This document shows, one piece after another, positions 33,582-54,921 of a stretch of 64,000 bases of DNA. Numbering within the stretch: the stretch's first letter is position 1; each line of letters begins with the position of its first letter. The position numbers and the translations under genes were made by a program. The notes beneath the pieces were generated by a model. It did not search any database, had not been told where the DNA came from, and was given only the letters and a program-made list of their open reading frames with translations. This DNA is from an uncultured Chloroflexia bacterium (lineage in GTDB: Bacteria > Chloroflexota > Dehalococcoidia > DSTF01 > JALHUB01): contig OY969814.1 of assembly GCA_963703345.1 (NCBI GenBank), forward strand, positions 2,208,001 through 2,272,000, written 5' to 3'.

Positions 33582-33657
33582 GCGGGAATAGCTCAGTTGG
33601 TAGAGCATCTGCTTCCCAAGCAGAGGGTCGCGGGTTCGAGTCCCGTTTCCCGCTCCA
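33582..33657 (+). tRNA. tRNA-Gly(CCC)
   Basis: 76 nt; GCGGGAA/TTCCCGC acceptor stem, TCTGC-TTCCCAA-GCAGA anticodon arm, GTTCGAG T loop, encoded CCA. Confidence 0.98.
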
Positions 33658-33979: not shown

Positions 33980-35173
33980 ATGCACAATCGCTCTGGTGAG
34001 CTCGCCGGGGCGAACTCGAACGCAGCAACTCAAGCTAGTCTCGTCGATCCGGCGAAGCTCAAACGACAAATTGTTGCCTCTCTCAGGGCGCAGGGATTTC
34101 GCATCTGTGGCGGCGAAATCCTGCCCCCGCGCGATCTCGACAAAGCCAAGATACGCGAGCTTCACACCACCGCGGTCTTTCATCGAATCGAGGTTTCCAG
34201 AAGAGGACTCGTAGGCCAAGAACCCCGCCTGCTTAGGCGGTTCGCTTCGGGGACCAACGTGGACCCGGCAAGCGTTAGGCCGCGCCTCGTCGAAGTGGAG
34301 CCGGATTCTGAGGACGAGCTGCTTTTCAGGTATGCTGCTTTGCACTGGAGTATCCCTGTCTCTTCCGGATATGGAAGGAGGATCCGATTTCTGGTTGTCA
34401 ACGAACAGAACCAGAGTCTCATCGGGCTCTTCGGACTGGGCGACCCAGTGTTCAGTCTCGCCGCCCGCGACGGATGGGTCGGGTGGGACAAAGAGTCGAG
34501 GCGCGAGAGGCTCCGCAACGTCATGGATGCTTTCGTGCTGGGTGCTGTCCCGCCCTACGCGAGTCTATTGTGCGGGAAGCTCGTTGCTATGCTCGTTTGC
34601 AGCTCAGAGGTGAGGCGGGCCTTCGAACGCAAATACGGTGGGGCAGAATCCTTCATAAGCCGCCGACCATCAGACGGTCGGCTCGCCCTTGTGACTACAA
34701 CCTCAGCGCTGGGCAGGTCTTCACTCTACAGCCGTATCAAGTACTGCGATCGCGTACTGTACGAGAGTGCCGGTTATACCAGGGGCTCCGGCGAGTTTCA
34801 CTTTGCCAACGGGCTCTATTCCGCTCTGACCAGCTATGCTCGTCTTCATTGTCAGCCAAGCGCGAAACATCCTGCATGGGGGATTGGATTCCGTAATCGG
34901 CGCGAGGTCGTGAGGAAAGCATTGAGGGAGCTCGGGTTGTCAGCCGAATGGGTCTACCACGGGGTTCGTCGGGAAGTGTTCGTCGTTCCACTGGCCCAAA
35001 ACACAAGAGAGTTTCTTCGGGGGGAGCACTCCGAGCTGCTATGGTCTGAACAATCAGCCGACGACCTGTTTAAGTGGTTCCGCGAACGGTGGCTGCTGCC
35101 CCGTGCCAGTCGCAACTGCTCGTACCGAGATTTCGACCCGCATTCATACGCAATATGGAACAACGCGACCTAG
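33980..35173 (+). CDS. druA: Druantia DruA-like protein (DUF4338)
   Basis: WSIPVSSGYGRRIRFLV, LGDPVF..AARD.WVGW, LGAVPPY..LLCGKLVA, TTTSALGRSSLY. Confidence 0.85.
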   Translation: MHNRSGELAGANSNAATQASLVDPAKLKRQIVASLRAQGFRICGGEILPPRDLDKAKIRELHTTAVFHRIEVSRRGLVGQEPRLLRRFASGTNVDPASVRPRLVEVEPDSEDELLFRYAALHWSIPVSSGYGRRIRFLVVNEQNQSLIGLFGLGDPVFSLAARDGWVGWDKESRRERLRNVMDAFVLGAVPPYASLLCGKLVAMLVCSSEVRRAFERKYGGAESFISRRPSDGRLALVTTTSALGRSSLYSRIKYCDRVLYESAGYTRGSGEFHFANGLYSALTSYARLHCQPSAKHPAWGIGFRNRREVVRKALRELGLSAEWVYHGVRREVFVVPLAQNTREFLRGEHSELLWSEQSADDLFKWFRERWLLPRASRNCSYRDFDPHSYAIWNNAT

Positions 35174-35231
35174 GGATTCGATCTCCAAAACAGGGAAGCG
35201 CGAGCATGGATGACCAGCTTTCGCGAGAGAG

Positions 35232-36383
35232 ATGAACGAATCTGAGACTCCGTTCGCTGACCTGCCCGAGGCCCTGCTTGACGAGATGCTCTCCCAAACA
35301 GAGCGGGTCGCCGAAGGCCTGTTGGGGACTTTCAGATCGGTCAACACGCAGCGGGCAGCTATGCGCGATGCCCTCAAGAGGCTCAACCTTGTCGACAATG
35401 AATCGTCTCTGGGTTATCCTCCTCTGCCGACGACCTGCGCGGTCAACGGCTCCTACGCTATAGAGAGGCTTCTTACCACCGATCTGGTGGCCTGTGCTGC
35501 CGTAGCAATCGAGGGTCTGACGCCGCCTTCAGAACAGCGGCATTGGGAGCAGCCTCGTCACCTCTCGGTCATTCAATCCGAAGTGCATCACGCCGAGACA
35601 GCTACCGTCCTTAGAGCTCTGATGCTGGGTCTTGAGTTGACGCTCGCGACAAGGGCTCCTCATGATGTTGTCATGCTCGACGCCACCCTCACCCTTCCGG
35701 TCATCTACTTCAACCAGGCCCTCCACGCTGCGGCTGGCGCGCCGGAGCTTGAGATATCGAGCGCTTTCCGCCAGCAGGCGGTCGATTTCCTGCGGTGCTA
35801 CGCCGCGATTCTTCAATCGGAACGTTCCGACCGGGACTTCGTTGGCCTGCCGAAGTACTCGACGAGGCGCGAGGTTGGCCGACAAGCCGGATGGTCGGAC
35901 CAACATGACGACAGGGGCCTACTTACACTCATTCTTGATCCTGGGGAGTTCACTAGGCCGCTTTCCCTTGAGCAGCCAGCGCAGCCCTGGCATCTAGGTA
36001 CGGGGACGCTCCCCCCCGATGTACGTGCAGATGCGGAACGCCTGGCTACGGAGATCGCGGGCCGCCTGGAGCAAGTTCGGATATTTTACTACAAGCCCCA
36101 CCGATGGTTGCCTGCCGTTAGGGTGGAAGTGCCTTCAAATGTTGCTGAAAACCAACACCGCCTGGCTAGGGTGGTCCAAGGAATAAAGCATCAGTGTGCG
36201 GCGGCCGGGATGATGGAGCCCTACCCCTTGTACATGGCGGACCGCATGGTAAAGGCCGTGGCGCGAGCGTTGCCGGCCTTCAGACAGGTGACGACGCAGC
36301 GGATTTCCGAGCAGTACGAAGGCGAGATCGCTGAAGTCTTCTTCGGCTTGCACGGCTATAGGTCAGAGTCAGGAGTTCAGTAG
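35232..36383 (+). CDS. NurA-family nuclease (first acidic motif reads VNGS)
   Basis: AVNGS (family xxDGS), VMLDATL, PK, PYPLYMADR; directly upstream of HerA-like ATPase. Confidence 0.8.
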   Translation: MNESETPFADLPEALLDEMLSQTERVAEGLLGTFRSVNTQRAAMRDALKRLNLVDNESSLGYPPLPTTCAVNGSYAIERLLTTDLVACAAVAIEGLTPPSEQRHWEQPRHLSVIQSEVHHAETATVLRALMLGLELTLATRAPHDVVMLDATLTLPVIYFNQALHAAAGAPELEISSAFRQQAVDFLRCYAAILQSERSDRDFVGLPKYSTRREVGRQAGWSDQHDDRGLLTLILDPGEFTRPLSLEQPAQPWHLGTGTLPPDVRADAERLATEIAGRLEQVRIFYYKPHRWLPAVRVEVPSNVAENQHRLARVVQGIKHQCAAAGMMEPYPLYMADRMVKAVARALPAFRQVTTQRISEQYEGEIAEVFFGLHGYRSESGVQ

Positions 36384-36385
36384 TG

Positions 36386-38191
36386 ATGGACACCGGTTCT
36401 ATGGGCCGAAGCATCGACAAACTCATCGATGACTCGGAGCGCCTTGGAGTCGTCGGCTCGCCTTCATCGACCGCCGAGCTTGCCATGGACGTCCTGGGTG
36501 CCGCTGTCAACAGGAAACTCGTCGGGGAGTTGGCTCTTTTCCGTTTCCTCCAGGACTCTGCCAGGCACTATGCACTCGGCCAGATTACGGAGGTAAAGCT
36601 GCGGAATATCTGGCACGAAGATCCAACGATGCGGAGCCTCATCAGGCAACGCGGGCGCGTCAACGCTGTGAGCGAGCGCCAAGACACGCACCTCGCTCAG
36701 ATGATTGTGAGCGCCGTGTTCAAAGACGGCGCCAGCTCCGCGACCTATGAGCCAAGCATAATGGGAACGGTACCCGCGACAGGTACGACGATTCATGTGG
36801 TAACAGACCCTATCCTGGAGGAGATTCTACGACCTTACCGCAGGCAGATCTTTTACCTTGGTCAGGTGTATGGTTCGAAGCCCAAACTGCCTCTATGGTT
36901 CAAGCACTTCGACCGAGGACCAGACGGCGCCGGAGAAGCCTATCATCTCGGCATTTTTGGCAAGACCGGTTCGGGCAAGTCGGTCCTGGCGAAGATGATT
37001 CTGCTCGCCTACGCCCGCTATCCTCAGATGGCTCTTCTCGTAATCGATCCGCAGGGCGAGTTTGCGCGCGATATCGGTGGTGGGCACACAACGGGTGAAT
37101 TCCCCTTGCCGTTAGGAGATCTCGTCAGCTCCCGAGGGAAGCCGGTCCGTGTTCTCACCGTAAAAAACCTTGTCCTCGATAGATGGGAGCTTTTCCGCCG
37201 AATTCTCTATGAGTCCCTTTTCTTTGAGCGCTTGACGATTCCGCGGAGCGAGAACCGAGAACTGGCGTGTGACATCCTTTCGGAGAAGTTGCAGAAAGCC
37301 GGGGTGAAGCTCGCTGAGCTTTGGAATCGAACTTCATTCGACCGCGCGTGGACTTTGCTTGGTGACCCCGCTGTGCAACGCAATTTCTATCGAACAGACG
37401 CGTCTCGCGCCCGCTTCGACGCCGCTCTGCACGAGGCAGATGCTGACGAGTTCTACAAGGATTACTGGCGCCCGGTGGCAGAGCTATTCCGCGCCGACAG
37501 ATCCGGAGCCACAACAGTTGAGAGTGCGCTTGGCTCCTTGTTAGATCCGCAGAAGGATCAGCGTCCGACTCTGGTAGTGGACCTGTCACGCGAACAGGCT
37601 TCCGGGATGTTCTGGAATGATACAATCCAGTCCCTAGTCATCAAGCGGCTTCTGGACGGTCTAGAGGTCACGGCAGAGCACTTCTTCAAGGGCGGAGAAA
37701 GCCTGAATGCGTTAGTAGTGATAGACGAAGCACACCGTCTCGCTCCACGAGAGTTGCCGACAGACGATGAGGCCGCGAAAGCGGTCCGAGGAGTTCTCAT
37801 TGACGCCGCACGAACAACGAGGAAGTATGGGTTAGGTTGGCTGTTCATCAGCCAAACCCTCTCGAGTTTGCACACCGAGATACTCCAGCAGCTCCGCATC
37901 ATGTTCTTCGGCTTCGGCCTCGGCCTCGGCCAGGAGTATCAGTCTCTCAGACAGTTGGTGGGCTCGTCCGGCCCCGCCCTTGACCTGTATCAGCTATTCA
38001 GAGATCCTCATTCAGCGTTTGACGCAAAGAGTCGCCAGTACTCTTTTATGACCATCGGCCCGGTGAGCCCATTGTCATTCTCCGGGAGCCCCCTTTTCTT
38101 CAACGCCTTCAACACGGTGGAGGCGTTCGTAGAAGCCAACGAGATGGAAACGAATCCAAGGCAGGACAGCGGGCAAGAACCTAGAATCTAG
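36386..38191 (+). CDS. HerA/FtsK-family ATPase (DUF87)
   Basis: N-terminal HAS-barrel-like region, GIFGKTGSGKS, VIDPQGE, VVIDEAH, RKYGLG...SQ. Confidence 0.9.
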   Translation: MDTGSMGRSIDKLIDDSERLGVVGSPSSTAELAMDVLGAAVNRKLVGELALFRFLQDSARHYALGQITEVKLRNIWHEDPTMRSLIRQRGRVNAVSERQDTHLAQMIVSAVFKDGASSATYEPSIMGTVPATGTTIHVVTDPILEEILRPYRRQIFYLGQVYGSKPKLPLWFKHFDRGPDGAGEAYHLGIFGKTGSGKSVLAKMILLAYARYPQMALLVIDPQGEFARDIGGGHTTGEFPLPLGDLVSSRGKPVRVLTVKNLVLDRWELFRRILYESLFFERLTIPRSENRELACDILSEKLQKAGVKLAELWNRTSFDRAWTLLGDPAVQRNFYRTDASRARFDAALHEADADEFYKDYWRPVAELFRADRSGATTVESALGSLLDPQKDQRPTLVVDLSREQASGMFWNDTIQSLVIKRLLDGLEVTAEHFFKGGESLNALVVIDEAHRLAPRELPTDDEAAKAVRGVLIDAARTTRKYGLGWLFISQTLSSLHTEILQQLRIMFFGFGLGLGQEYQSLRQLVGSSGPALDLYQLFRDPHSAFDAKSRQYSFMTIGPVSPLSFSGSPLFFNAFNTVEAFVEANEMETNPRQDSGQEPRI

Positions 38192-38849
38192 CAGTTTCTG
38201 ACCCGTGCTCACCGGGGCTTTCTTCCAATGACGCGAGGATCTTGTCGACCATGGGCATCAAGTCTCGCCGCAGTTCGTCCCTCGTTCCTTCGTTCTCGAT
38301 GACGGTCAGCGACAGGTCACCCCGAGCTCGTAGGGCGTCTAAATCGTCATCGCCATACCATTTCTCCATGTCAACTCGGGAGATGTATCTTGCCCGGTCA
38401 ACCTGCCCACGCGTGAGGTTGCGTTGCCATGCAATGTCCCACGATGATGAGAGGTATAGGACAAGCGATTGGTCAATGATCCGTTTCGGAAGACAATCGA
38501 ACAGGGGTGCGTAGACGTGGCGCGCAACCTCCGCTATCACCAGATCGGCCCGCTCGGTTTCCAGCTTGGCGTGCAGCCAGTTATCCAACTCCTGCCAGAT
38601 GGAGTCGTCAGTGATCTCGAATCCCCCGTCTTCAGTGGGGCGATGGCGCCTGAACGAGGGGTCTTTCTGGACCAAGACCCAGAGTACCGGGAAGTCGTGC
38701 ATGACTGCTATCTCCCCTTCGAAGCCCCGCAGACGCAGCTCATCGGTCAGGATCCTTGTCGCGAGAGACTTGCCAGTGCAGGGACGACCAACGACGAAGA
38801 CAAACCGTGCCAAAGCCCCTCTCCTTGAACTGGCACTGACGAGCGTCAC
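38181..38849 (-). CDS. P-loop nucleoside/nucleotide kinase-like protein
   Basis: FVVGRPCTGKS Walker A near the N-terminus, LYL....AWQRN..R lid-like motif, VIEN.G; about 220 aa. Confidence 0.72.
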   Translation of the reverse strand: MTLVSASSRRGALARFVFVVGRPCTGKSLATRILTDELRLRGFEGEIAVMHDFPVLWVLVQKDPSFRRHRPTEDGGFEITDDSIWQELDNWLHAKLETERADLVIAEVARHVYAPLFDCLPKRIIDQSLVLYLSSSWDIAWQRNLTRGQVDRARYISRVDMEKWYGDDDLDALRARGDLSLTVIENEGTRDELRRDLMPMVDKILASLEESPGEHGSETARF

Positions 38850-38867: not shown

Positions 38868-39725
38868 TTACGACCGCCCCCGCCTTCCCCACACGGCTAT
38901 GGAGAGTGCTGCAAGCGACAAAACGAGCGAAAAAAAGGATACCGCTAGCGCGGTCATTGGCCAACCACCCAGTATATCGCCTTCCGGTTTGATAACTGGG
39001 GCTATTGCGACGACAGCTAGGGCCGCTATGACCGCGGCCAGCACCGCCACCACAATCGTGATGAAGGTGATCGACTGCGCTCTGAGTTCGTCACTTTGCC
39101 TTGTCACGCGCGCTCCGAGTTCGTCACTTTGCCTTGTCACCCTCTCGACGTTCTCGACCATCTCGCGGGGAAAACTCCGCAGCCGATGAAGATCAAAATC
39201 CCCCAGAGAATCTCGGCCCTGCTTCATCGGTATGCTGATTCCTTTCCTGAACGGGGTGGTCTTGACGAAATCCATCGCGAAAAGCTCTTTGCGATAATCG
39301 AGAACTACTTCGCGATCGGCCAGATTATATACTGGTGCGAACAGTTCTCCTGACCATCCCGGGTCAACCTGAAGAGCTCCCACCCATAGCAAGCCCTCAT
39401 AAACGCTCGACACTTTCAGAGCCCATCGTGCTATCAAGAATCTTGGCAGGTTCAACTTCTCGTAAGTACTGACAATCGCCATTTGATAAGGAGCGATTTT
39501 AAGGGGAGCGTTTTCGGCTATTACCACATCGACTCCACCCAGACGAGCGTGACTTCCCAGCGTTAGGTTGTATCTTGCTGCTCGCAGGTGTTCCTGGTGG
39601 AATGGATCGATGAGCGGCGGGACTACTTTGGTGGAGTAGTATTCGATCTCGTCAGATAGGAGCACCGCTCCGTGCCATCCCCCCCGGCTCTTTCGCTGGT
39701 CTTCTTCAAGGATGTCTTCCTGCAT
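38868..39725 (-). CDS. dCTP deaminase/dUTPase-fold protein fused to coiled coil and two TM helices
   Basis: LLSDEI, LIDPF..EHLRAARYNLTLG, E.LNLP, VDPGWSG..YN; C-terminal FITIVVAVLAAVIAALAVV and LAVSFFSLVLSLAAL. Confidence 0.82.
   Translation of the reverse strand: MQEDILEEDQRKSRGGWHGAVLLSDEIEYYSTKVVPPLIDPFHQEHLRAARYNLTLGSHARLGGVDVVIAENAPLKIAPYQMAIVSTYEKLNLPRFLIARWALKVSSVYEGLLWVGALQVDPGWSGELFAPVYNLADREVVLDYRKELFAMDFVKTTPFRKGISIPMKQGRDSLGDFDLHRLRSFPREMVENVERVTRQSDELGARVTRQSDELRAQSITFITIVVAVLAAVIAALAVVAIAPVIKPEGDILGGWPMTALAVSFFSLVLSLAALSIAVWGRRGRS
39084..39140. repeat. 33-bp-period tandem duplication (RVTRQSDEL x2)
   Basis: gagttcgtcactttgccttgtcac at 39084 and 39117. Confidence 0.9.
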
Positions 39726-40079: not shown

Positions 40080-41024
40080 TCAAACTGGGGCCGGAACGCT
40101 ATTCGGCGGACTCATCTCCTTTGCGGGCATTGACTTTATCGCTTCGCCACAACCGCCATCGCAGCCGTTGTCCGGTACGTGGTTTGCCTCAAAGCAGCTA
40201 GGGCACACCATTTGGCCATTGCGAGTGTAGACGCGGCGCATAAGATTCGCCAGGGTCAGCTCTTCGCCAATCAGCCTATCCAATAGTCCGTCCTCTACCA
40301 TTGCCCTGCCCAACTTATTGATTCCCTCTGCTCGAATGCCTACTTTCCGAAGGATCGAGCAGCTCCACGACACCACATCGGCCAACTCCTCGATCATGTG
40401 AGCGCGATGACGATCGATCTCTTTGCTACCTTCTGCGGGAGCATCGCAGAGTATGCGTATATCTTCCGCAACCTCGGCGACCTCCTCTAGGTAATGAAAC
40501 CCGATGTCGCTGTCTAGACGCAGCTGGTCATCCTTGTCGAAGATCTCCTTGAAGAGGCCCTCAAGGTCACAAAGGGTCTTGGGCACGTGCCCCTTGGATT
40601 TCTTTCTATTTCTGGTCAACTGGTCAGCGACGTGTTCTTTGTCAAGAGGGCCTCTTAGTGACGCGCATTGGCAGCCAGGGCTCAGGCAATGGGGACAGAT
40701 CAGCGGATATTTGTAGAACGCAATCGTCCCAAGGCCGTCAAGCGCTCCCAAATGCGGATCGGTAATAGGCTCGAATGAGGCTGGAACCTGCTCCTTCTGG
40801 CCGAGCTTCCTTACAAAGATAGTCAGCCAACACCAGGCTTGCGCTAAGCCTACTAGTTGGGCCGAAAGGACCTCCTCGCGAATCCCTTCTCCTACCGCTG
40901 CCGCATGCTCTGCGACCTTCAACCAGATTCGCTCCAGGGATCGCTTTCCGGCCAACTCCCCGTAGAGTGACCAAAGCCCATCTGCCCAGGCATCAAGGTT
41001 GTCGTCGTCAGGAGCAGTAACCAT
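40080..41024 (-). CDS. MazG-like NTP pyrophosphohydrolase with duplicated domain and Cys clusters
   Basis: LEEVAEV...EELADVVSW in second half; degenerate AEH..A / LAQAWCW in first half; KYPLICPHC...CQC and CPSC. Confidence 0.78.
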   Translation of the reverse strand: MVTAPDDDNLDAWADGLWSLYGELAGKRSLERIWLKVAEHAAAVGEGIREEVLSAQLVGLAQAWCWLTIFVRKLGQKEQVPASFEPITDPHLGALDGLGTIAFYKYPLICPHCLSPGCQCASLRGPLDKEHVADQLTRNRKKSKGHVPKTLCDLEGLFKEIFDKDDQLRLDSDIGFHYLEEVAEVAEDIRILCDAPAEGSKEIDRHRAHMIEELADVVSWSCSILRKVGIRAEGINKLGRAMVEDGLLDRLIGEELTLANLMRRVYTRNGQMVCPSCFEANHVPDNGCDGGCGEAIKSMPAKEMSPPNSVPAPV

Positions 41025-42099
41025 AGGAGAATACTCCTCTTCTCTTGCCCGCTACCTCAGGGGCGTGCGTCGTCCGTCGATCAACCAACTCTTCATTTGT
41101 GGGACCCGTTCCGATAAACACCACCGGGACCCCTAGTTCCCCCTCAATTTCTCGAGCAAATCGGCGCGCACTTTCGGTGAGGTTCGCAAAATCAGTCTGC
41201 CCCTTGTTCTCGAAATCAATGTAGTCCACCCCGTGAACGGCAATAGCCGTAGGTCGATTCACCGCCGCCGCCCGTTTCACAAGGGCGAGGTCGAAAGTCG
41301 CCACTCGCCTGGGGTTCTTGGTGACAGTAGTCAACTCCATTATTGGATAGGGATACCCGCTCAACTCCCTCAGTCGATCCCAGGAGATCTCGTCACCGAT
41401 CTCGCCGGAATTGCCGGCGACCCTTATTGGGAAAGTGCGGACCGCCATGATTACATCGTCGACGGCCAACGGACTCAATCCAACCTCGCCTAGAAATGAC
41501 GCTGCCGTAGTGTCGCGGCTCGTGCAATATGGGAACTGAGCCGTGTGGTAAAGCGAGAGGCCATAACCTTGAGTGCCTTCTACTAAGGTTTTCGCCCCGC
41601 GATCGACCGCACTGTTGACTTCGTCGGCGACGTCCGTGAGAAATAGACGCAGCTCGGGCACGTCTTTAGCGAGTCTGAAAGATTCGTCGCGAAGAGCCCT
41701 GCGAGCGACGGCTGAACCTGTCCCGGACAACGTCGAGCCGCATCTCTCCCTGAGAAGGGTGCGTGTCTCAGCAGCCCGGTCAGTCTCCTCAATGATGCCC
41801 GTGTTTCGATCGATGCCAATTCTGTCCGGGCGCACGCCGAACGTCGCTAACTCATCAAAGAACACGCCAACATCCAGCAAACCGCCAGCAGCAATCAATA
41901 GCCGGGTCCTGGAGTTTACAAGTCCGGCCGGGATGCTCCGCAGTTGAATTCTCTTGCCGCCCATGTCAACGGTGTGGCCGGAGTTGGGTCCGCCGCAGCG
42001 CACTACGTATTCGACATCATCAGTCATACTCAGGTGGGAGCAGATTTTGCCCTTGCCCTCTCCTCCGTATTGAGCGCCCACGATCACCGTCACGCCCAT
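41008..42099 (-). CDS. Adenylosuccinate synthetase homolog with PurZ/PurZ0-type signatures
   Basis: GAQYGGEGKGK, GGPNSGHT, EGTQG..L, FPYCTSRD, RTFPIRVAGNSG, ELTTVTKNPRRV, HGVDY, GTGP; 363-aa short form; GGAGG RBS. Confidence 0.85.
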   Translation of the reverse strand: MGVTVIVGAQYGGEGKGKICSHLSMTDDVEYVVRCGGPNSGHTVDMGGKRIQLRSIPAGLVNSRTRLLIAAGGLLDVGVFFDELATFGVRPDRIGIDRNTGIIEETDRAAETRTLLRERCGSTLSGTGSAVARRALRDESFRLAKDVPELRLFLTDVADEVNSAVDRGAKTLVEGTQGYGLSLYHTAQFPYCTSRDTTAASFLGEVGLSPLAVDDVIMAVRTFPIRVAGNSGEIGDEISWDRLRELSGYPYPIMELTTVTKNPRRVATFDLALVKRAAAVNRPTAIAVHGVDYIDFENKGQTDFANLTESARRFAREIEGELGVPVVFIGTGPTNEELVDRRTTHAPEVAGKRRGVFSYGYCS

Positions 42100-43673
42100 T
42101 GCAGACCTCCTGAGACACTCGTCTCTTTGGCTCGCGGCATTCGAACGCCTTCATGATGATTCGGCGCTGTCGGCACGATTAGATAGCCTTCATCGTCGTT
42201 GCCCAGCGCTTCGTAGTCACCCGCAAGATAGAAATAACCGACGATGGCCGAGGTTATTGCATCCAGTTCATCATGACTAAGCGACTGATCAGCAAGCGGC
42301 CCCGTTATCCCAAAGTCGAGGAGCGACATCCTAAGCTCCTCTCTCCCTGTACTCTTCCGCGGTATTCGAAGAATGTCTTGGGCGGCCCCGGGGAAGCTCT
42401 CGATGACTTCAAGACCCTGTTGCCGCAATCTGTTCGCCAGCGTGATGCCCCGATTCGTCAAAGCGATCATTGTCGGCAATTGACACCAGAACACGGAGAT
42501 CCCGCGCTGCTTGAGCTCCAGCTCCGAGTGCCGGTAGATCTTCCGAATGCCCCCGTCCGTGGGTGCAGGCAAATTGAGCGGAGAGTCAATAGATACTACG
42601 TCGGGTTTTGCCTGCAGCGTCAGTTCCACGAGGTCATCGTCCGTTCGCACCACTTTGGTCGTTGCGTGTCTGCCTTTGAGCAGCGCCCAGCCCGTCGGCC
42701 GCTTTGGTGATGCGGCGAGATCAATGCCGACTATCCCGCGCTCTGTTCCAGTCTTTCGGAGAAGCGACAGTATGCGGTGCTTCCGGGGAGGGGTGACAGC
42801 TCGTCCGGAAGCCAACGGGGCGAGGGCCATACGGAGTGCCTCTTCGACTTGGGTGGCCGTCATGTCCATGCCGACAATTGGCCCGGGTGGCTCACTTGGG
42901 CTGCTGCTCAGCAAACGGCGACTTGCCTCCGAGTATGCGAAGTTTAGCAGTTGAACAAGGTTGACGGTATCCCACATGTTGTAGCGCACTAGTTGTTCGA
43001 AAGCGGACTGCTGGCCACGCTTATACGCGAACCAAAGGGCGGCGGCCTGCCTTCCTGTAATGGCCTGAGATTCCGCATCTCTGGTGAGACCGAGCGCCTG
43101 CTCGATGCGCTTGAGGCCTCCCCGTAGCTCGAGGCGGGCGAGAAGAAAACGTAGATCCACATGAACCAAGGGTAGATCAAGCTTCGGGTAGGCGGACCGC
43201 AAGAAGGGGATGTCGAACTGGCTCCCATTGAATGTCACCAGGATCCCGAAACGACGCACTGCGTCAGGGAAGCGCTCCAAGTTGACGCCCTGGACGAAGC
43301 ATTCGTAGCCTTCCTTGCTGTACAGACCTACCATGGTCAGTTCGTCGTAATAGCGACTGAGCCCAGTCGTCTCGACGTCAAGGAAAGCAATGCGGTCAGA
43401 GAACTCGCGAACTAGGCGCCATCGTTCGCCAGATGGGAACAGCGGAGCAAAGTAGTCCAAACGACGGTGATCGAGAGCCTGCTTTGACTCGCGGAGCCCC
43501 GACAGCAGTCGGCGCGAAGGCCCGACCAGGCGCTCGGTCGAAATCGGGGCGGGATTCAGCGGACGGTCAACCCAAGCGAAGTAGTCCGACCAGGAATGGA
43601 TTCCCTGGGACCACAGTCGCTGCTCGGTTCGCCTGCCGACTCCGTGTAGGTGGCTGAAGGTATTGGTGAGCAT
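42090..43673 (-). CDS. YprB-like (RNase_H_2, DEDD) exonuclease fused to DUF429 domain
   Basis: HhH-like GVGRRTE, FLDVETTG, FNGSQFD, HVDL, YNMWD; then VGIDLA, SIDSPL, IESFPG, HDELDAI. Confidence 0.82.
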   Translation of the reverse strand: MLTNTFSHLHGVGRRTEQRLWSQGIHSWSDYFAWVDRPLNPAPISTERLVGPSRRLLSGLRESKQALDHRRLDYFAPLFPSGERWRLVREFSDRIAFLDVETTGLSRYYDELTMVGLYSKEGYECFVQGVNLERFPDAVRRFGILVTFNGSQFDIPFLRSAYPKLDLPLVHVDLRFLLARLELRGGLKRIEQALGLTRDAESQAITGRQAAALWFAYKRGQQSAFEQLVRYNMWDTVNLVQLLNFAYSEASRRLLSSSPSEPPGPIVGMDMTATQVEEALRMALAPLASGRAVTPPRKHRILSLLRKTGTERGIVGIDLAASPKRPTGWALLKGRHATTKVVRTDDDLVELTLQAKPDVVSIDSPLNLPAPTDGGIRKIYRHSELELKQRGISVFWCQLPTMIALTNRGITLANRLRQQGLEVIESFPGAAQDILRIPRKSTGREELRMSLLDFGITGPLADQSLSHDELDAITSAIVGYFYLAGDYEALGNDDEGYLIVPTAPNHHEGVRMPRAKETSVSGGLQWA

Positions 43674-43891: not shown

Positions 43892-45370
43892 ATGACAGAT
43901 TCCGACCCTTCAACGCATTGGCCGAGCCACATCTCGCCTCTTGAGTTCCGGTACCTGCCTTCTGGGGACCCGAGAAGCGAACGAGTCAGGCAGTATCTCA
44001 CTGAAGAAGCCTATGTCCGCTATCTCACCAGGGTCGAGTCCGAGCTGGCAAGGGCACTTGGTAGGCTGGGGGTATGCCCTCAGGAAGTTGCGGATTCTAT
44101 TTCGAGGGCAGCTGATGCTGTCAGCGCCGTGGAAGTGTACCACGAAGAGCGCACTACAGGTCATCAGATCCCGGCCCTGGTAAACTGCATACGTCGAAGG
44201 GTTCCCCCCGATGCGGCGAATTTCGTTCACCTTTTTGCCACGTCGTCTGACATCATGGACACCGCGAACGCCTTACGCTACAAAGAATTCGCCAGGGACG
44301 TTCTGCTCGTTGACCTCATTCGGCTGGAGCGAACGCTTATCGAACTAGCCGAGATGCACGCTAGCACAAGACAGGTGGGCAGAACTCATGGGATGTTTGC
44401 TGAACCCTTGACATTTGGCTTCGCGCTAGCGTTCTACGTTGATCGGCTCGGCAATCGAATCCGCAGCATTAATGACGCTCGGAACAACCTACGAGGCAAA
44501 CTCTCCGGCGCAGTGGGGGCCTACAATTCGATGTCGCTTGCGTTCCCGGACGACCCTACGGTTCTGGAATCCGACGTTCTGGGCCACCTGGGCTTGCAGC
44601 CCTCAGACACTCGCATTTCAACGCAGATTGTTCAACCTGAATACTTGACAGACTTCGTTTATTCGGTCGTGACGTGTCATTCCGTGATCGCGAATCTCGC
44701 CGATGACATGAGACACTTACACAGAAGCGAAATCGCGGAGGTGCGAGAACGTAGTGGCGAGGGCCGGGTGGGCTCTTCAACAATGCCTCGCAAGATCAAC
44801 CCCCAGTCCTTCGAGACCGTAAAGAGCATGTGGAAGGTGACGATGCCGCGCCTCACTACCGTGTTGCTCGATCAGATATCCGAGCATCAGCGAGACTTGA
44901 CGAACTCGGCCTCGATGCGCTTCATGCCCGAGATTCTGGCGGCTGTCGATTTCTCAGTTTGTCTTCTTGGCGACGCAATGCAGCGTCTGGAAGTAGGGGT
45001 TGACAGCATGAAGTCGAACCTCGCCTCTGCCTCGCGGGAGACCGTAGCAGAGCCGCTCTACATCTTGCTCGCGCTCAACGGCTGCCCGAACGGTTTCGCG
45101 AAAGCGCGCGACCTGGTAGGCCAATCTATCGCTACTGGTGTGCCGGTGTTAGACCTTTGCGAGGTTGATGAAGATGTGCGTCCGATCCTCGCCCGACTGC
45201 GCCAGGAACATGTTGCTATCCTTCAGGACCCGAGCCTCTATGTGGGAGACGCGGTGAGGAGAGGCAACGAAACGTGCGCCCTCTGGCGCGCCCAAGTCAA
45301 CCGGCTAGAGGCCGCATTGCAGCGAGAAAGAGCGGAGCGTTCGGCTTCGTCTCTTGGGCCGAGGCTGTGA
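43892..45370 (+). CDS. purB: Adenylosuccinate lyase family protein (island copy)
   Basis: ISPLEFRY, H..ATSSDI.DTA, GRTHG..AEP.TFG, GAVG, STQ, GSSTMPRKINP, EHQRDLTNS. Confidence 0.88.
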   Translation: MTDSDPSTHWPSHISPLEFRYLPSGDPRSERVRQYLTEEAYVRYLTRVESELARALGRLGVCPQEVADSISRAADAVSAVEVYHEERTTGHQIPALVNCIRRRVPPDAANFVHLFATSSDIMDTANALRYKEFARDVLLVDLIRLERTLIELAEMHASTRQVGRTHGMFAEPLTFGFALAFYVDRLGNRIRSINDARNNLRGKLSGAVGAYNSMSLAFPDDPTVLESDVLGHLGLQPSDTRISTQIVQPEYLTDFVYSVVTCHSVIANLADDMRHLHRSEIAEVRERSGEGRVGSSTMPRKINPQSFETVKSMWKVTMPRLTTVLLDQISEHQRDLTNSASMRFMPEILAAVDFSVCLLGDAMQRLEVGVDSMKSNLASASRETVAEPLYILLALNGCPNGFAKARDLVGQSIATGVPVLDLCEVDEDVRPILARLRQEHVAILQDPSLYVGDAVRRGNETCALWRAQVNRLEAALQRERAERSASSLGPRL

Positions 45371-45451: not shown

Positions 45452-46069
45452 TTAGGATGACGTTTTGCGGCCGCTCGTGGTGCCCGTTCTCTCGTCGGCA
45501 AGAATCTTCGCCCACTGCTCTTTGGACTCTTTCTCGCCGTAAGGCCACTCCGCGAAGGTGAGAACCAGGACCACTATCGTGTAAACCATCCCGAGAGCGA
45601 TGACGCTTACAAAACCCTCCCTGGGATTGGGCTTAAGGTCGAAGGCTACCTGTACCAGAAATGGCAGCGCACCCGCTGCGATTCCTAGAAGGAGGAAGAC
45701 CATAGCTTGCGCTCCTGAATATGCACGTATGGCTACGCGTCGCCGGAGCTTGCGGTATATCTCCCATCGCTGTTCCCATTGTGACTGGCCAGTCGCAGAG
45801 AGATAAGCAGTGATCACTCGTAATTGGACCTTCAGTGCCTGGTGCAGGCAAAACAGCGCTAGAAGAACAAGCAAGAGCAGAAGAGAGATACCGTAGGTAA
45901 TCCATCCAACATCGCTGGCTGTCGCATTAGCCTTCTCCACTATCCAGCCGGCGCCGACGCCGAAAATCGTAACTGCCAGGATGGTTATGAGAAGCCTCTG
46001 ATTCACTATTTGATTGACCTCGCCGTGAAGCTTCGTGGCATCGAGTTTCTCACCTTCTTCTGTCTGCAC
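45452..46069 (-). CDS. Four-TM membrane protein (effector-like)
   Basis: Four hydrophobic helices; GTG at 46069 with GGAGG RBS overlapping end of upstream gene. Confidence 0.7.
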   Translation of the reverse strand: MQTEEGEKLDATKLHGEVNQIVNQRLLITILAVTIFGVGAGWIVEKANATASDVGWITYGISLLLLLVLLALFCLHQALKVQLRVITAYLSATGQSQWEQRWEIYRKLRRRVAIRAYSGAQAMVFLLLGIAAGALPFLVQVAFDLKPNPREGFVSVIALGMVYTIVVLVLTFAEWPYGEKESKEQWAKILADERTGTTSGRKTSS

Positions 46070-47042
46070 GACGCGGCCTCCTGTGTGTCGAGTCCTGGCC
46101 GGAATACTTCCCCATTTCTCTCTCAAGGGCAGCAAGTGATGTCGCATTACCGAAACAGCGGGACATCGCAAGCAAGAGGCGATATCTCGACGTCGGGTGC
46201 CAGCGGTAACCGCGTCGTGTCTGCACAATTAGACGTGCCACGTTGGTCGGCAGAAGAGGGACGAATCGCAGACGTTTCAACTCTGCTCTACTACGGTCCC
46301 TTCGTTTTCTCCACGACGTCATAAGATCGCCAGACGAGAAGGCCGTCTTTAGATAGGCTACGATTGCAGGATTGGCTATCGCCGATTCGATGACCACGGC
46401 GAGGAGCGCACAATCGCTTGGTTCGGCACCTGCAGGAAAGAGTTCCTCGTTTACGCCTCGCGCTGCCGCTGCGTGAAATGCTGCATCCCCATAGGCCAAA
46501 TCCTCAGGCGAAAGTTGCTCTTCAAAGGAGGCACACCAATGGAGTGGGTGGTATTCTACCCACTCGCTCCTCTGGGCAAGCACTAGCATTTCATCCGCGG
46601 TCTCCACGATGCCGTGAATGCTGACAATGTTTGGAGTTGAGGCGGTTTTGGATTCGACGAGGGTCCGGATAAGCTCAAGCCGCGAGCCTATCCCCCCGTT
46701 CGACCTGAGATACTCGTGAATCGGTTGCACCTCGGACCATTCGGTGGCTTGGACACTGAGACGAATCTTCTCCCCCTGAGACGTGTAGGTTCGAAGCGAC
46801 AGTTTGCGTTCGCTAATCTCGTCACGGTGATGTTCAAGCCATGAATCTCTGAGTGCACGCCAACTATCCGAGATACCTCCTACTCTGCGTTGAATTCTGA
46901 CACGCGTGTCTCGAATTTCCCACCCTGGCGATAGGCTTGGCGCTCTAGTCCCTTCGATTGCTCCATCCACGATCAGCTGGGGCATAGGAATTTGGGTCGC
47001 CCTGCCGCCGCTCGGGACTGCGTAGAATTCCTGAAAATCCAT
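46050..47042 (-). CDS. Nudix-fold-like protein
   Basis: VETADEMLVLAQRS..V...P..W..SFEE...AAARGVNEEL divergent Nudix box. Confidence 0.65.
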   Translation of the reverse strand: MDFQEFYAVPSGGRATQIPMPQLIVDGAIEGTRAPSLSPGWEIRDTRVRIQRRVGGISDSWRALRDSWLEHHRDEISERKLSLRTYTSQGEKIRLSVQATEWSEVQPIHEYLRSNGGIGSRLELIRTLVESKTASTPNIVSIHGIVETADEMLVLAQRSEWVEYHPLHWCASFEEQLSPEDLAYGDAAFHAAAARGVNEELFPAGAEPSDCALLAVVIESAIANPAIVAYLKTAFSSGDLMTSWRKRRDRSRAELKRLRFVPLLPTNVARLIVQTRRGYRWHPTSRYRLLLAMSRCFGNATSLAALEREMGKYSGQDSTHRRPRRADRRR

Positions 47043-47048
47043 CGCAGT

Positions 47049-48419
47049 TCAGGAGAGATTCGTCGGTCGAATGCTATGAGCATCCATGCGTCGTGCCGCC
47101 TTTGTGATTGTGTTGATTACGCCTGCCCGATATTGCCCTCTAGTCCATTGGGCCAAGGCCTGATATCCGCCGACTAGTGCGGGAACGCTCTGTCCTACTT
47201 CATTATGCGAAATCATCGGAGCGACGGCCGCAGCCAACAGAGCCCAGGCCGGGATTGACCGAGGAGTAGAATTCGTCAATTTCTTCTCCCAAGCTCGCTC
47301 CAGCGCTGTCGCGTGCTCGCGAATTGCGTCCTCTAGTTGCTCTTCATGCCTGTCATCCTCGTGCCATCGTGCCAACGCTTCTTGATAGCGCTGGCGCGTA
47401 AGATCCGTTTCCTGGAACACTAGCGTCACTTTAGGCCACTCCAACTCCAGCGGATCCCATTTGAACAATCCCGCGACTCCCTTGAGCCAAAGACGATTCG
47501 AGGAAGACTCCCTCTGATTCTCATCGAATGGGTACAAGGCGTCGCAGGGCCTATCCAGGAAGAGGCTTACCGGCACTGAATCTGGCAGAGCCCCGACCGA
47601 AGCACCATCGGGAGCCAGCGTACGTTGCACGGCCGCATTCCACGCGTGAATAACCGTGTTCCTTATAGCTCTATATGTTGGGGCATCAAGTCCATCCCTG
47701 TGCTCCTCAAGACAGGTCATGACCGCCGACCGAATCCCACGATCTGGCACATTGTCGTCGATGAACTTTTTCGTGCTATGGACCACCGTCCAGCTACTCA
47801 CCCCTAGTTCTTCCGGCCCGCGAGCGTACAACTCTTCCAAAATGTCGTACATTGTAACCGGGGCCCGAGTCTTTGCTCGCTTCGTCGCCGAGGTTTCGTC
47901 CCGGGAGAAGTACTCAATGGCCCTTAGCGGTCCCGACAACCTCGGGTCCAGGTCGCCAATACCTCTTGGATACGGCTCAACAAGCATCCTCTCAAGGTCA
48001 ATACTCCCCGACGACAGCAAGAGGTCGGCAAATCGTGTTATGGGTTGAGCCGTTCCAAGCGAGGATGAGATCCAGCCAGGCTTGAGCGTCCGCCTCAGTC
48101 CCCAGGTCGCGATCCCAAAGTTCCCCAAGGCTCGACCGGTCTTGTCGGGATTTGCCACGAGTTCGAAAGGTGAGAATTGCGAATCCCGTGCCAAGCGCGC
48201 CAGCTCCTCGGGTAGGGCGTCATCCACGAAAAGTGCTTGCACAACGGGACTGTCGAACAGATGCACATCATTGAGCACGAGCGTGTTCCCGAAGAGCATA
48301 TGGAGCCTAACGATTCTCTGGGCATTCTCCTTAAGTTGCTGAACGTTCGGTTGCGGAAGTCCATGCCAAGATTGGGGACGGAAATACTCCCCATCGAACC
48401 ACTGAGCATAGCGACGCAT
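47049..48419 (-). CDS. Hypothetical protein (456 aa)
   Basis: Long ORF with purine-rich RBS, 6 nt from the next gene; no family recognised. Confidence 0.65.
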   Translation of the reverse strand: MRRYAQWFDGEYFRPQSWHGLPQPNVQQLKENAQRIVRLHMLFGNTLVLNDVHLFDSPVVQALFVDDALPEELARLARDSQFSPFELVANPDKTGRALGNFGIATWGLRRTLKPGWISSSLGTAQPITRFADLLLSSGSIDLERMLVEPYPRGIGDLDPRLSGPLRAIEYFSRDETSATKRAKTRAPVTMYDILEELYARGPEELGVSSWTVVHSTKKFIDDNVPDRGIRSAVMTCLEEHRDGLDAPTYRAIRNTVIHAWNAAVQRTLAPDGASVGALPDSVPVSLFLDRPCDALYPFDENQRESSSNRLWLKGVAGLFKWDPLELEWPKVTLVFQETDLTRQRYQEALARWHEDDRHEEQLEDAIREHATALERAWEKKLTNSTPRSIPAWALLAAAVAPMISHNEVGQSVPALVGGYQALAQWTRGQYRAGVINTITKAARRMDAHSIRPTNLS

Positions 48420-48541: not shown

Positions 48542-49276
48542 TCAACCCCGCACTCCAGAAAGAGATGCGATGATTTCCTCTTGTCCCCAATTAGGATCGA
48601 TAGTCGGGACAATTCTGCCACTCTCGCCTTTTACGTACGGGCCCAAAGTCTTCCTGTGCTCCTCTGGGCAGAAAACCACCGCCACGTTGTCGAGAAGGAA
48701 ACCGAAGTCCCCGCGGTGTCGCCACTCGCGCTCCCACCAAAACTCCTTCTTCGAGTTGCGCCACGTACCCATGCCCTCGACGAACGGAGCGATACCAGCG
48801 ATAGGCTGGTCTGAGAATCGCTCACCTTCTGCGGCTTGTCTGACCAATTCCCAGACGTTCTCCGTTAGCCATTCGTGACCGCCGGTCATATCGACGTACC
48901 AAACAGGATTCACGCCCAGCTCGCGCGCCTTTCGCTTGGTGAATGCCAGTCCGAAGGGTTCGAGCTGATTGCGTCAACCCTTGATCGGACACACGAAGCT
49001 CCATGCTTGCTCCAGAGGTGCCTCAGTGAAACACACTACCCGCTGGGACTTCAACGCCGTTTGGTGGTCTTTCGGACGTAGCTTCCCTTGGCGGAGAACC
49101 TTCTCTAGCTGAATGACGGCCGCGCCCATGGGAGTACGTGCGAGCAGCGTCTGATTAGCAAGAATGCTCTGTAGGTTCTCTAGCGCCGCCTTGCCGTTCC
49201 CTTGCCGTGTCCAGTGAATAACGAAGGTGGACAGATCGGTGCGCCGGCGCAACAATTCCTCGATCTCCCATTCCAT
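48542..49276 (-). pseudogene. AbiGi-like protein interrupted by one in-frame TGA (48974-48976)
   Basis: DLS.FVIHWT, VCFTEAPL, PFGLAF.K, NPVWY, WWEREWR all in one frame across the stop. Confidence 0.78.
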
Positions 49277-53718: not shown

Positions 53719-53901
53719 TTGCGGCACCTCCTTTCAAGGTGACGCATACATCACTCTGCTTTGGCGCCAAGTCAACCCGGTTCTCCAGAGATAAAGGCAA
53801 AACGAGGAGAATTCGCCCCGATAGCCCCCTCTCACGCTTGACTTCGTGCGCCGTCAGAGTGATGTATGTCCATACCAGAATCGCGCGGTCGGGAGGACGC
53901 A

Positions 53902-54921
53902 GTGACCAAGAGAAACGAAGACGGCAGTAGCGACAAGGAGGACCTTCAGACCCTCGTTGACCTCTATCTCCTCCGTTGCCAGGTCGAAGGCAAGTCGCCC
54001 AACACCCTGAAGGCCTACGCCTGGACCATGAGACGTTTTGTGGAAGTAGCTCGTCAGGAGGGATTCGCCGGCCCTGTTCGCCAGATCACGCCAGTTCACC
54101 TCTACAGCTACCTTGGCCGCTTCTCGAATCTCTCCGCCGAATCGAGGCACCGCTATCATCGCGAGGTCTCCTTCTTCTTCAGTTGGCTGGAGTCGATGGG
54201 GTACGTAGACCGTTCCGCCTTCGCCCAGATCAAGAAGGTGAAGCTGCCGCAGCGGATCATCCAGCCCTTCTCTCAAGAGGACGTGCGCAAGCTGCTCGCG
54301 CTATGCGACGACTCTCCCGTCGGTCGACGCGATCGAGCGATGCTTCTGGTGATGCTCGACACGGGCGTCAGGGTTAGTGAGCTGGTTCACCTAAACTTGG
54401 CAGATGTCGATCTAGAAACAGGCCGCACTCGGGTCCTTCACGGCAAGGGCAACAAGCAGCGGGTGGTAGCCTTCGGTGACGGATGCAAGGACGGTCTATT
54501 GAGCTACCTCGAGGCGAGAGGATACGAGCCTGGCCCGCTGTTCGTGGCGGTGACGGGACATCGAAGGCTGCACCTGGGCGTCGGGCTCCAGCCGAATGGA
54601 GTGAAGCAGATGTTACGGCGCTTGGGCAGGAGGGCGGGTCTGCCCAAGGTCCATGCTCACCGCTTCCGTCACACCTTCGCCACCTGGGCCATCGAGCAAC
54701 ACGCACGAGAGCTGGATGTCCAGTACTTGCTGGGGCATTCGACCCCCGACATGGTCAGACGATACTCGTCTACGTATAATTCGGAACAGGCTGCTCGCGC
54801 TCACGCGGCCTTCAGCCCGGCAGACTGGCTGGGGCGCGCTGGCCTCCTCACTCATTCGCGCTCAATGCCCTGCCTCTCCCCGTCGTCAAGGCCCATCCTT
54901 GCCCCCGATCGCTTGAGCTAG
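53902..54921 (+). CDS. Tyrosine recombinase/integrase
   Basis: KSPNTLKAY SAM-like N-terminus; DTGVRVSEL (R), GKGNK (K), HRFRH, LLGH, RRY catalytic set. Confidence 0.93.
   Translation: MTKRNEDGSSDKEDLQTLVDLYLLRCQVEGKSPNTLKAYAWTMRRFVEVARQEGFAGPVRQITPVHLYSYLGRFSNLSAESRHRYHREVSFFFSWLESMGYVDRSAFAQIKKVKLPQRIIQPFSQEDVRKLLALCDDSPVGRRDRAMLLVMLDTGVRVSELVHLNLADVDLETGRTRVLHGKGNKQRVVAFGDGCKDGLLSYLEARGYEPGPLFVAVTGHRRLHLGVGLQPNGVKQMLRRLGRRAGLPKVHAHRFRHTFATWAIEQHARELDVQYLLGHSTPDMVRRYSSTYNSEQAARAHAAFSPADWLGRAGLLTHSRSMPCLSPSSRPILAPDRLS

Follow-up and report, generated by a model that had tools for sequence, protein, structure and literature searches.

Kongming (KomABC) signals with dITP, using a dNMP base-modifying enzyme, a kinase step and a dead housekeeping pyrophosphatase that senses dITP, as given in the accessible part of its description (PMC13434031), and the kinase is borrowed from the phage according to the available portion of a preprint (10.1101/2024.12.20.629578). 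In type II Metis (MisB-MisC), the effector is a transmembrane (TM) protein that responds to m6dAMP, and the accessible section of the preprint (10.1101/2025.11.05.686725) proposes that this small membrane protein opens on a modified mononucleotide from DNA breakdown. Phages with a Z genome carry clusters of PurZ/PurZ0, MazZ, DutZ, DatZ and DpoZ; in these phages, host PurB and kinases turn dSMP into dZTP (10.1101/2025.10.22.683976, available part), and the Dut-like enzymes encoded next to PurZ0 have dATP/dGTPase activity (PMC12884076, available part).

Here we describe a gene module from an uncultured Chloroflexia bacterium, found in a window of 64,000 nucleotides, the whole stretch of DNA that was analysed (Table 1). 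As in Kongming, its predicted parts are an enzyme that modifies the base of a dNMP, a kinase step and a housekeeping enzyme that has lost its activity and serves as a sensor. In contrast to Kongming, neither a KomA deaminase nor a HAM1 sensor nor a Sir2 effector is among the window genes or conserved neighbours; the modifier is a PurZ-type ligase, the sensor a Dcd/dUTPase fold on TM helices (hereafter Dcd-TM), and the kinase is encoded by the module. Type II Metis shares with it the predicted small membrane protein gated by a modified mononucleotide. However, MisC is a three-TM protein without an annotated domain that senses the m6dAMP of host methylases, whereas the sensor here has a Dcd fold; the module also brings a synthetase, a nuclease and a kinase of its own, and no HAD gene was found among its conserved neighbours, MisB being a HAD phosphatase. 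The likeness to phage Z clusters lies in the PurZ signature residues and the MazG-like and Dut-fold neighbours; in contrast to those clusters, the module is cellular, neither DatZ nor a polymerase occurs among its conserved neighbours, and its Dut fold is degenerate and membrane-anchored.

A ligand-binding domain followed by TM helices is also the layout that we take the membrane effectors of CBASS, Pycsar and Thoeris to have, and a preliminary description of this DNA had used these systems as its model. Kongming and Metis proved the closer analogues: the operon encodes no CD-NTase, PycC cyclase or TIR partner, PADLOC matched none of the core genes apart from a weak PDC-S44 match to DUF429, and we predict a linear nucleotide with a modified base as the ligand. 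By analogy, the module likely works like Kongming with a Metis-II-like output while having no component in common with either, MisC being compared by its description. We found no description of the module in the literature, including the accessible parts of the Kongming and Metis preprints, PMC13069673 and 2026 reviews, subscription papers and supplements lying outside the scope of the search.

Table 1 Features of the module in the window (positions count from the first letter of the window)
Feature	Coordinates	Strand	Remarks
P-loop protein, NMP-kinase profile match over its length	38181..38849	-	weak, E=1.3e-6, two-sequence test
Dcd/dUTPase-fold protein with helical stalk and 2 TM helices, predicted receptor-effector, 285 aa	38868..39725	-	
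Predicted TM helix 2, residues 260-278	38892..38948	-	Kyte-Doolittle 2.41, model
Predicted TM helix 1, residues 224-242	39000..39056	-	Kyte-Doolittle 3.19, model
In-frame 11-aa duplication in stalk, 33-bp period	39077..39140	-	absent from closest homologs
Altered motif II segment K104-G111, KVSSVYEG (E. coli Dcd: RSSLARLG)	39393..39416	-	
MazG-like protein between synthetase and receptor	40080..41024	-	in window copy of module only
PurZ/PurZ0-type adenylosuccinate-synthetase homolog	41008..42099	-	Gly13 replaces PurA Asp; Y11, P224, W240, T257, D292
RNase_H_2 (DEDD-type) exonuclease fused to DUF429	42090..43673	-	acidic residues conserved in both domains
Second, divergent PurB, SSTMPRKINP signature intact	43892..45370	+	divergent from exonuclease gene; accessory

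A Dcd/dUTPase fold on a membrane stalk

The Dcd-TM open reading frame starts with ATG, 6 nt downstream of a GGAGG, and contigs from a sequencing run match the region at 99% identity or more. A scan for promoters and terminators at the module gave results at chance level. The protein matches Pfam DCD (PF22769) above the Pfam cut-off (E=3e-7) and the dCTP deaminase model TIGR02274 at only 40 bits (cut-off 92.8). An AlphaFold2 model built from a 46-row alignment (pLDDT 89) places a beta domain up to about residue 155, followed by helices at 185-241 and 255-282. In a Foldseek search with this model, the archaeal Dcd-type dUTPases 8y1w, 9ln0 and 9ln3 ranked on top and Dcd came after; the archaeal dUTPase P45 (8y1w, 9ln0) and E. 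coli Dcd (1xs1) have the fold in common with Dcd-TM (E 2e-12 to 3e-9) and the DPGW motif too. The monomer model agrees with a trimeric dUTPase-like beta fold, the trimer being predicted from the fold. The domain assignment of the preliminary description, a Dcd/dUTPase domain with two TM helices, is thus borne out by profile, structure search and hydrophobicity.

The same description had drawn attention to a 33-bp duplication in the linker. The duplication is real and in frame: two direct copies of 31 nt, 97% identical and spaced by 33 nt (39077-39107 and 39110-39140), translate as VTRQSDELGAR/VTRQSDELRAQ. It is private to this lineage, since the linker of the two closest homologs is shorter and lacks the repeat, and the stalk varies from 19 to 74 aa across the family; it is therefore incidental, and we rejected it as a functional feature.

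Catalytic residues are replaced throughout the family

The segment KVSSVYEGL, previously noted as altered, aligns with RSSLARLGL of E. coli Dcd. The alignment pairs R110, S111, R115, H121, D128 and E138 of E. coli Dcd with K104, V105, Y109, W114, D121 and P131 of Dcd-TM, so the Glu position is replaced as well, by Pro131, which the preliminary description had missed. We take Ser111, Arg115 and Glu138 to be the catalytic residues of E. coli Dcd, both in numbering and in role; E138 and H121 mutants of Dcd are named in PDB titles. All three catalytic residues are absent from the query and from the family. Among 120 homologs, position 105 is Val in 112, Ile in 7 and Thr in 1, and Tyr109, Trp114 and Pro131 are each invariant (120/120); among 143 diverse representatives, none has Ser at 105 and the same three residues are again invariant (143/143 each). 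The domain described earlier as catalytically altered is therefore altered in this way family-wide.

For the dUTPase motifs II to V we presume the definitions read off Ghobes gp55 and P45. The motif II Ser and the Gly-rich tail of motif V are missing from the Dcd-TM family, the motif IV Gln (position 150) has become Thr, Ser, Ala, Val or Leu in 120/120 homologs, and the Asp of motif I is mostly gone (present in 15/143). What is kept is the motif III Asp121 (120/120 homologs and 141/143 representatives), the aromatic sugar gate (Trp or Tyr at 124 in 120/120 homologs) and, often, an Arg or Lys at position 104 in motif II; R100, W101, G111, G116, Q119, D152 and F153 are invariant or nearly so. 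Loss of the Glu alone does not make a dead enzyme, because archaeal dUTPases also lack the deaminase Glu; these do have RSS and the motif IV Gln. Set beside P45 and Dcd, Dcd-TM differs in lacking the RSS Ser, Arg115, Glu138 and the motif IV Gln and in having a stalk and TM helices. The residue pattern fits a predicted binding pocket that is under selection without chemistry, although the retained motif III Asp and the frequent motif II Arg/Lys count against a dead receptor. A canonical dcd is present elsewhere in the host genome.

The retained residues also bear on another reading, in which Dcd-TM is an active, membrane-tethered pyrophosphatase like DutZ that supplies dGMP to the synthetase or removes dATP, and dZTP poisons phage replication with no signalling involved. 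Asp121 is kept, the structures closest to the model belong to active dUTPases without the deaminase Glu, and a Dut-fold dATP/dGTPase is found in all 98 PurZ0 phage genomes, according to the available part of PMC12884076. However, Ghobes Dut (gp55), a neighbour of PurZ0, has AGFDL, GRSS, QRLAQ and the RGxxGFGSTG tail, and Dcd-TM lacks the motif II Ser, the motif IV Gln and this tail; its profile match to Ghobes Dut is just 46% over 33 columns. A supply role also leaves unaccounted for the conserved tail of two to four helices and the replacement of Dcd-TM by AAA proteins described below. We consider an active enzyme very unlikely.

A PurZ-type synthetase is linked to the predicted receptor

The synthetase of the module belongs to the PurA family and carries the residues expected of PurZ. 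At the position of the catalytic Asp of PurA, 59 aligned copies have Ser in 47, Gly in 9 (the window copy included), a gap in 3 and Asp in none. The Asp that PurA and PurZ0 have at the position of Vibrio N297 is invariant in the module synthetases; since we assume that an Asp there selects GTP as donor, the alignment suggests that GTP is used. Also common to the module synthetases are F/Y12, P233, W252 and T262 (Vibrio PurZ numbering), which match PurZ determinant residues given in the accessible parts of 10.1101/2025.10.22.683976 and PMC12884076. From these residues, the enzyme is predicted to be a ligase converting dGMP to dSMP. It is 27-38% identical to the phage enzymes compared and scores 212.7 bits against NCBIfam PurZ (NF038379), below the cut-off of 300.

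The window synthetase is an extra copy: canonical purA and purB are also present in the host, and a second PurA-family gene was found in 5/5 other module carriers. In a quick PurA tree, the synthetases form cellular clades of their own, one of which mixes archaeal and bacterial copies; as its branches are long and archaeal PurA is not represented in it, we claim neither a donor nor an order of events. In the available part of PMC12884076, cellular PurZ-like enzymes are mentioned only as four archaeal sequences in a basal position that carry Ser or Gly.

Linkage was seen from both directions. A PurA-like gene is present at 66/69 GTDB loci of Dcd-TM, the other three loci being truncated at a contig end. 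In a reverse search from the synthetase, which took the top 80 of 525 confirmed metagenome loci, Dcd-TM was found at 63/80, and at 27/33 of those with at least 2.5 kb downstream. Among the remaining 17, nine end close by, two (L087 and L150) have long flanks with neither protein, and six have, in the slot of Dcd-TM, soluble helical proteins related to one another but not to it, four with a complete AAA domain and two cut short. These six (L127:1702-3792, L139:5877-8405, L154:2189-4555, L156:8043-10262, L089 and L152) represent an undescribed family of helical-domain AAA ATPases, and a structure search with their N-terminal domain returned no match. Four further loci (L188-L191) belong to a subclade of kinase-fused synthetases without Dcd-TM; they encode DUF7002 (4/4), an IrrE-like protein (3, of which 2 Pfam-confirmed), PurB (2, L188 and L190) and an 8xMP membrane protein (1). 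A Pycsar pair lies near L189.

Genome neighbourhoods show that the genes predicted to encode the exonuclease-DUF429 fusion, the PurZ-type synthetase, an NMP kinase and Dcd-TM travel together. A kinase was counted at 50/69 loci, 49 by two profiles that were built from those same 69 loci and one as the adenylate kinase in L051. The module kinases come from unrelated families (AAA_18-type, dNK and ADK) and occur either as separate proteins or as fusions with the synthetase or the exonuclease. The exonuclease-DUF429 fusion is found at 37/69 loci, and an RlmJ-like protein, with a fold like that of the N6-adenine methyltransferase RlmJ (E 3e-4), at 29/69. The two mostly alternate, along lineages: 32 loci have the exonuclease only, 24 the RlmJ-like protein only, 5 both and 8 neither. 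The RlmJ-like protein (L023:10829-11584 and 28 other loci) has YxGDxGD and DPDNG motifs, and L140:906-3656 has kinase-fused PolX-type HhH/PHP domains in place of the DEDD exonuclease.

The preliminary description had named a PurZ-like gene and purB as the partners of Dcd-TM. The former is linked as described, while purB is not conserved: it was rejected as a core gene because it is linked at only 1/69 loci in the Dcd-TM search and 2/80 in the synthetase search, and the PurB of L011 adjoins purE and looks housekeeping. No other gene of the window recurs at the 69 GTDB loci. The module has a core of three or four genes and is carried by cultured strains, Rhodopseudomonas (L056) and Bradyrhizobium (L059), so that it is directly testable.

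The family is widespread but patchy

A word-based search over 7999 candidates yielded 432 proteins at E<=0.001. When a profile was run against 50%-identity representatives, 378 were matched at E<=1e-30 and 2412 at 1e-10, the weaker of which will take in other Dcd proteins. Homologs in the same context keep the TM tail: at least two C-terminal hydrophobic segments are present in 116/120 best homologs (query counted), and at least two after the domain in 133/143 new representatives, where the tail has two to four helices. Six of the 143 have no hydrophobic segment; their tails are just 43-92 residues long and may be cut. Loci have up to two receptor genes, and extra, lone copies exist.

The 69 loci in GTDB come from Chloroflexota, Acidobacteriota, Pseudomonadota, Bacillota, Binatota and archaea. 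In an unselected sample of 301 genomes of the class, Dcd-TM was matched at 1e-20 in nine and strongly in four, the same four that have the strongest synthetase match; neither protein was found in a genome of the same genus. INPHARED (50,697 phage records) gave no match and IMG/VR gave 297 pattern matches, zero of them confirmed, so that a phage origin of the Dcd-TM gene is unsupported by these searches. On plasmids, only eight distant matches were found, all to another subfamily. No fusion of the Dcd-TM domain to a known effector was detected among 718 candidates of 500-2000 aa, which is a weak test.

Distant Dcd-TM proteins (L157, L158, L160, L161, L075 and L076) pair with other nucleotide enzymes: a thymidylate kinase and an NDT, a kinase-like fusion and an HD protein, a radical SAM protein and a UDG, or, on plasmids, a MazG-like protein.

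A proposed modified-nucleotide signal

We lean, at a little better than even chance, towards a model in which Dcd-TM is a catalytically dead, dNTP-binding receptor-effector, the module makes a 2-aminoadenine-type signal from dGMP, and membrane damage aborts phage infection. In this model, the exonuclease would release dGMP as DNA is degraded during infection, perhaps with help from the MazG-like protein. The synthetase, going by its PurZ signature residues, would join aspartate to dGMP to give dSMP. By analogy with the phage pathway, PurB of the host or the module could then convert dSMP to dZMP, and the module kinase and host NDK could produce dZDP and dZTP. The trimeric Dcd fold with its invariant Tyr, Trp and Pro and nearly invariant Val may bind the product, with the stalk moving the TM helices; depolarisation of the membrane and cell death are the predicted last step.

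The signal is probably a Z-base purine nucleotide. Because PurB is rarely linked, the pathway may end in a product other than a dZ nucleotide, and a succinylated nucleotide is an alternative ligand; PurB and the kinases that complete dSMP in phages can be supplied by every host, and the extra PurB in the window and at L188 and L190 also points to completion of dSMP. The preliminary description had proposed a catalytically altered sensor that binds the product of the cluster and disrupts the membrane. Our results support this in part, namely for the altered domain, the conserved TM tail and the linkage to the PurZ-like gene, while binding of a ligand, damage to the membrane and protection against phages are predictions.

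Against an infection-specific signal counts the fact that all enzymes of the module are host-encoded. In a guard model, the modified nucleotide is made constantly and keeps Dcd-TM shut until the phage drains it through dNTPases, genome degradation or Z-phage enzymes and so frees the toxin. Kongming borrows the phage kinase, whereas 50/69 loci here have their own, so that synthesis could be constitutive, and the anatomy is the same as for an activating signal. We take Hailong to be such a guard system, with a synthase and a TM effector. A Panoptes-like system likewise combines a synthase and a TM effector as a guard. However, constantly made dZTP would enter DNA, and toxicity of a Z cluster in cells is mentioned in the accessible part of the S-2L paper (PMC8342488); an exonuclease as the usual partner better suits an input triggered by damage, and lone receptor copies also speak against a guard. 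We judge this model unlikely, and keep the activating signal as the preferred reading.

It is tempting to extend the activating-signal reading, although we offer this only tentatively and with considerable doubt. The Z base (2-aminoadenine) might be an immune second messenger in bacteria and archaea, made by a cellular PurZ from the dGMP of DNA breakdown and read by a dead dUTPase-fold trimer that opens the membrane; phage PurZ might have been taken from this cellular family, and Dcd-TM might represent a general class of modified-nucleotide receptors. The module itself gives cellular PurZ-like enzymes a role that can be put to the test, and it predicts an immune signal of a new chemistry in addition to dITP and m6dAMP. 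Given the distant Dcd-TM proteins that occur with other nucleotide enzymes, the Dcd/dUTPase fold may have been used repeatedly as a sensor coupled to membrane effectors.

Genomic setting and the link to defence

Across homologs, the link to defence is weak and counts against our preferred model. Defence-like PADLOC matches lie within three open reading frames at 15/67 module loci versus 2/16 controls (Fisher p=0.50), with the defence-like label assigned by judgement; with all PADLOC matches counted, the figures are 21/67 versus 4/16 (p=0.77). The comparison covers 67 of the 69 loci, two having no flanking reading frame, and its controls are 16 stretches from one class, the remainder of 20 requested after 4 proved too short. 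tRNA genes adjoin 5/60 loci versus 31/110 windows of the host genome and are thus not enriched, and an association of the homologs with tRNA islands was rejected. Many copies sit amid housekeeping genes, among them dnaA/dnaN/gyrB, purE/purB, cysK and aceA.

These neighbours, and the lack of significant defence-gene enrichment, would suit a non-defence role in nucleotide salvage or in signalling linked to stress or replication, where the membrane protein would act as a regulator or form a small channel. However, the very patchy occurrence, in four of 301 class genomes and not in the genome of the same genus, argues against it. Redundancy with housekeeping purA and dcd, exchange between archaea and bacteria and the swapping of partners are typical of conflict systems. 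We regard a non-defence role as quite improbable.

At the Acidobacteria loci L054, L058, L067, L068 and L069, the module adjoins dnaA/dnaN/gyrB, often together with a small divergent HTH gene.

In the window, the module lies inside a region of lower GC content (33-54 kb) that contains a tyrosine recombinase (53866-54921). A tRNA-Gly(CCC) gene is located at 33582-33657, and the last 46 bp at its 3' end are repeated about 36 kb downstream, just beyond the window (C1:2277373-2277418). The repeat, the lower GC content and the recombinase together suggest an integrated element. Several further copies of the 46-bp repeat occur elsewhere in the genome.

On the plus strand at 33980-38191 are genes for DruA (DUF4338), followed by a NurA-like nuclease and a HerA-like ATPase, without other Druantia genes; they converge on the module and are found at none of the homolog loci. 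On the minus strand at 45452-48419 are three open reading frames of 456, 330 and 258 aa, the last with several hydrophobic helices, that gave no Pfam, NCBIfam or PADLOC match and could be a separate sensor-plus-membrane operon. Two adjacent reading frames of 100 and 123 aa at 48542-49276, also on the minus strand and matching no family, look like halves of one gene.
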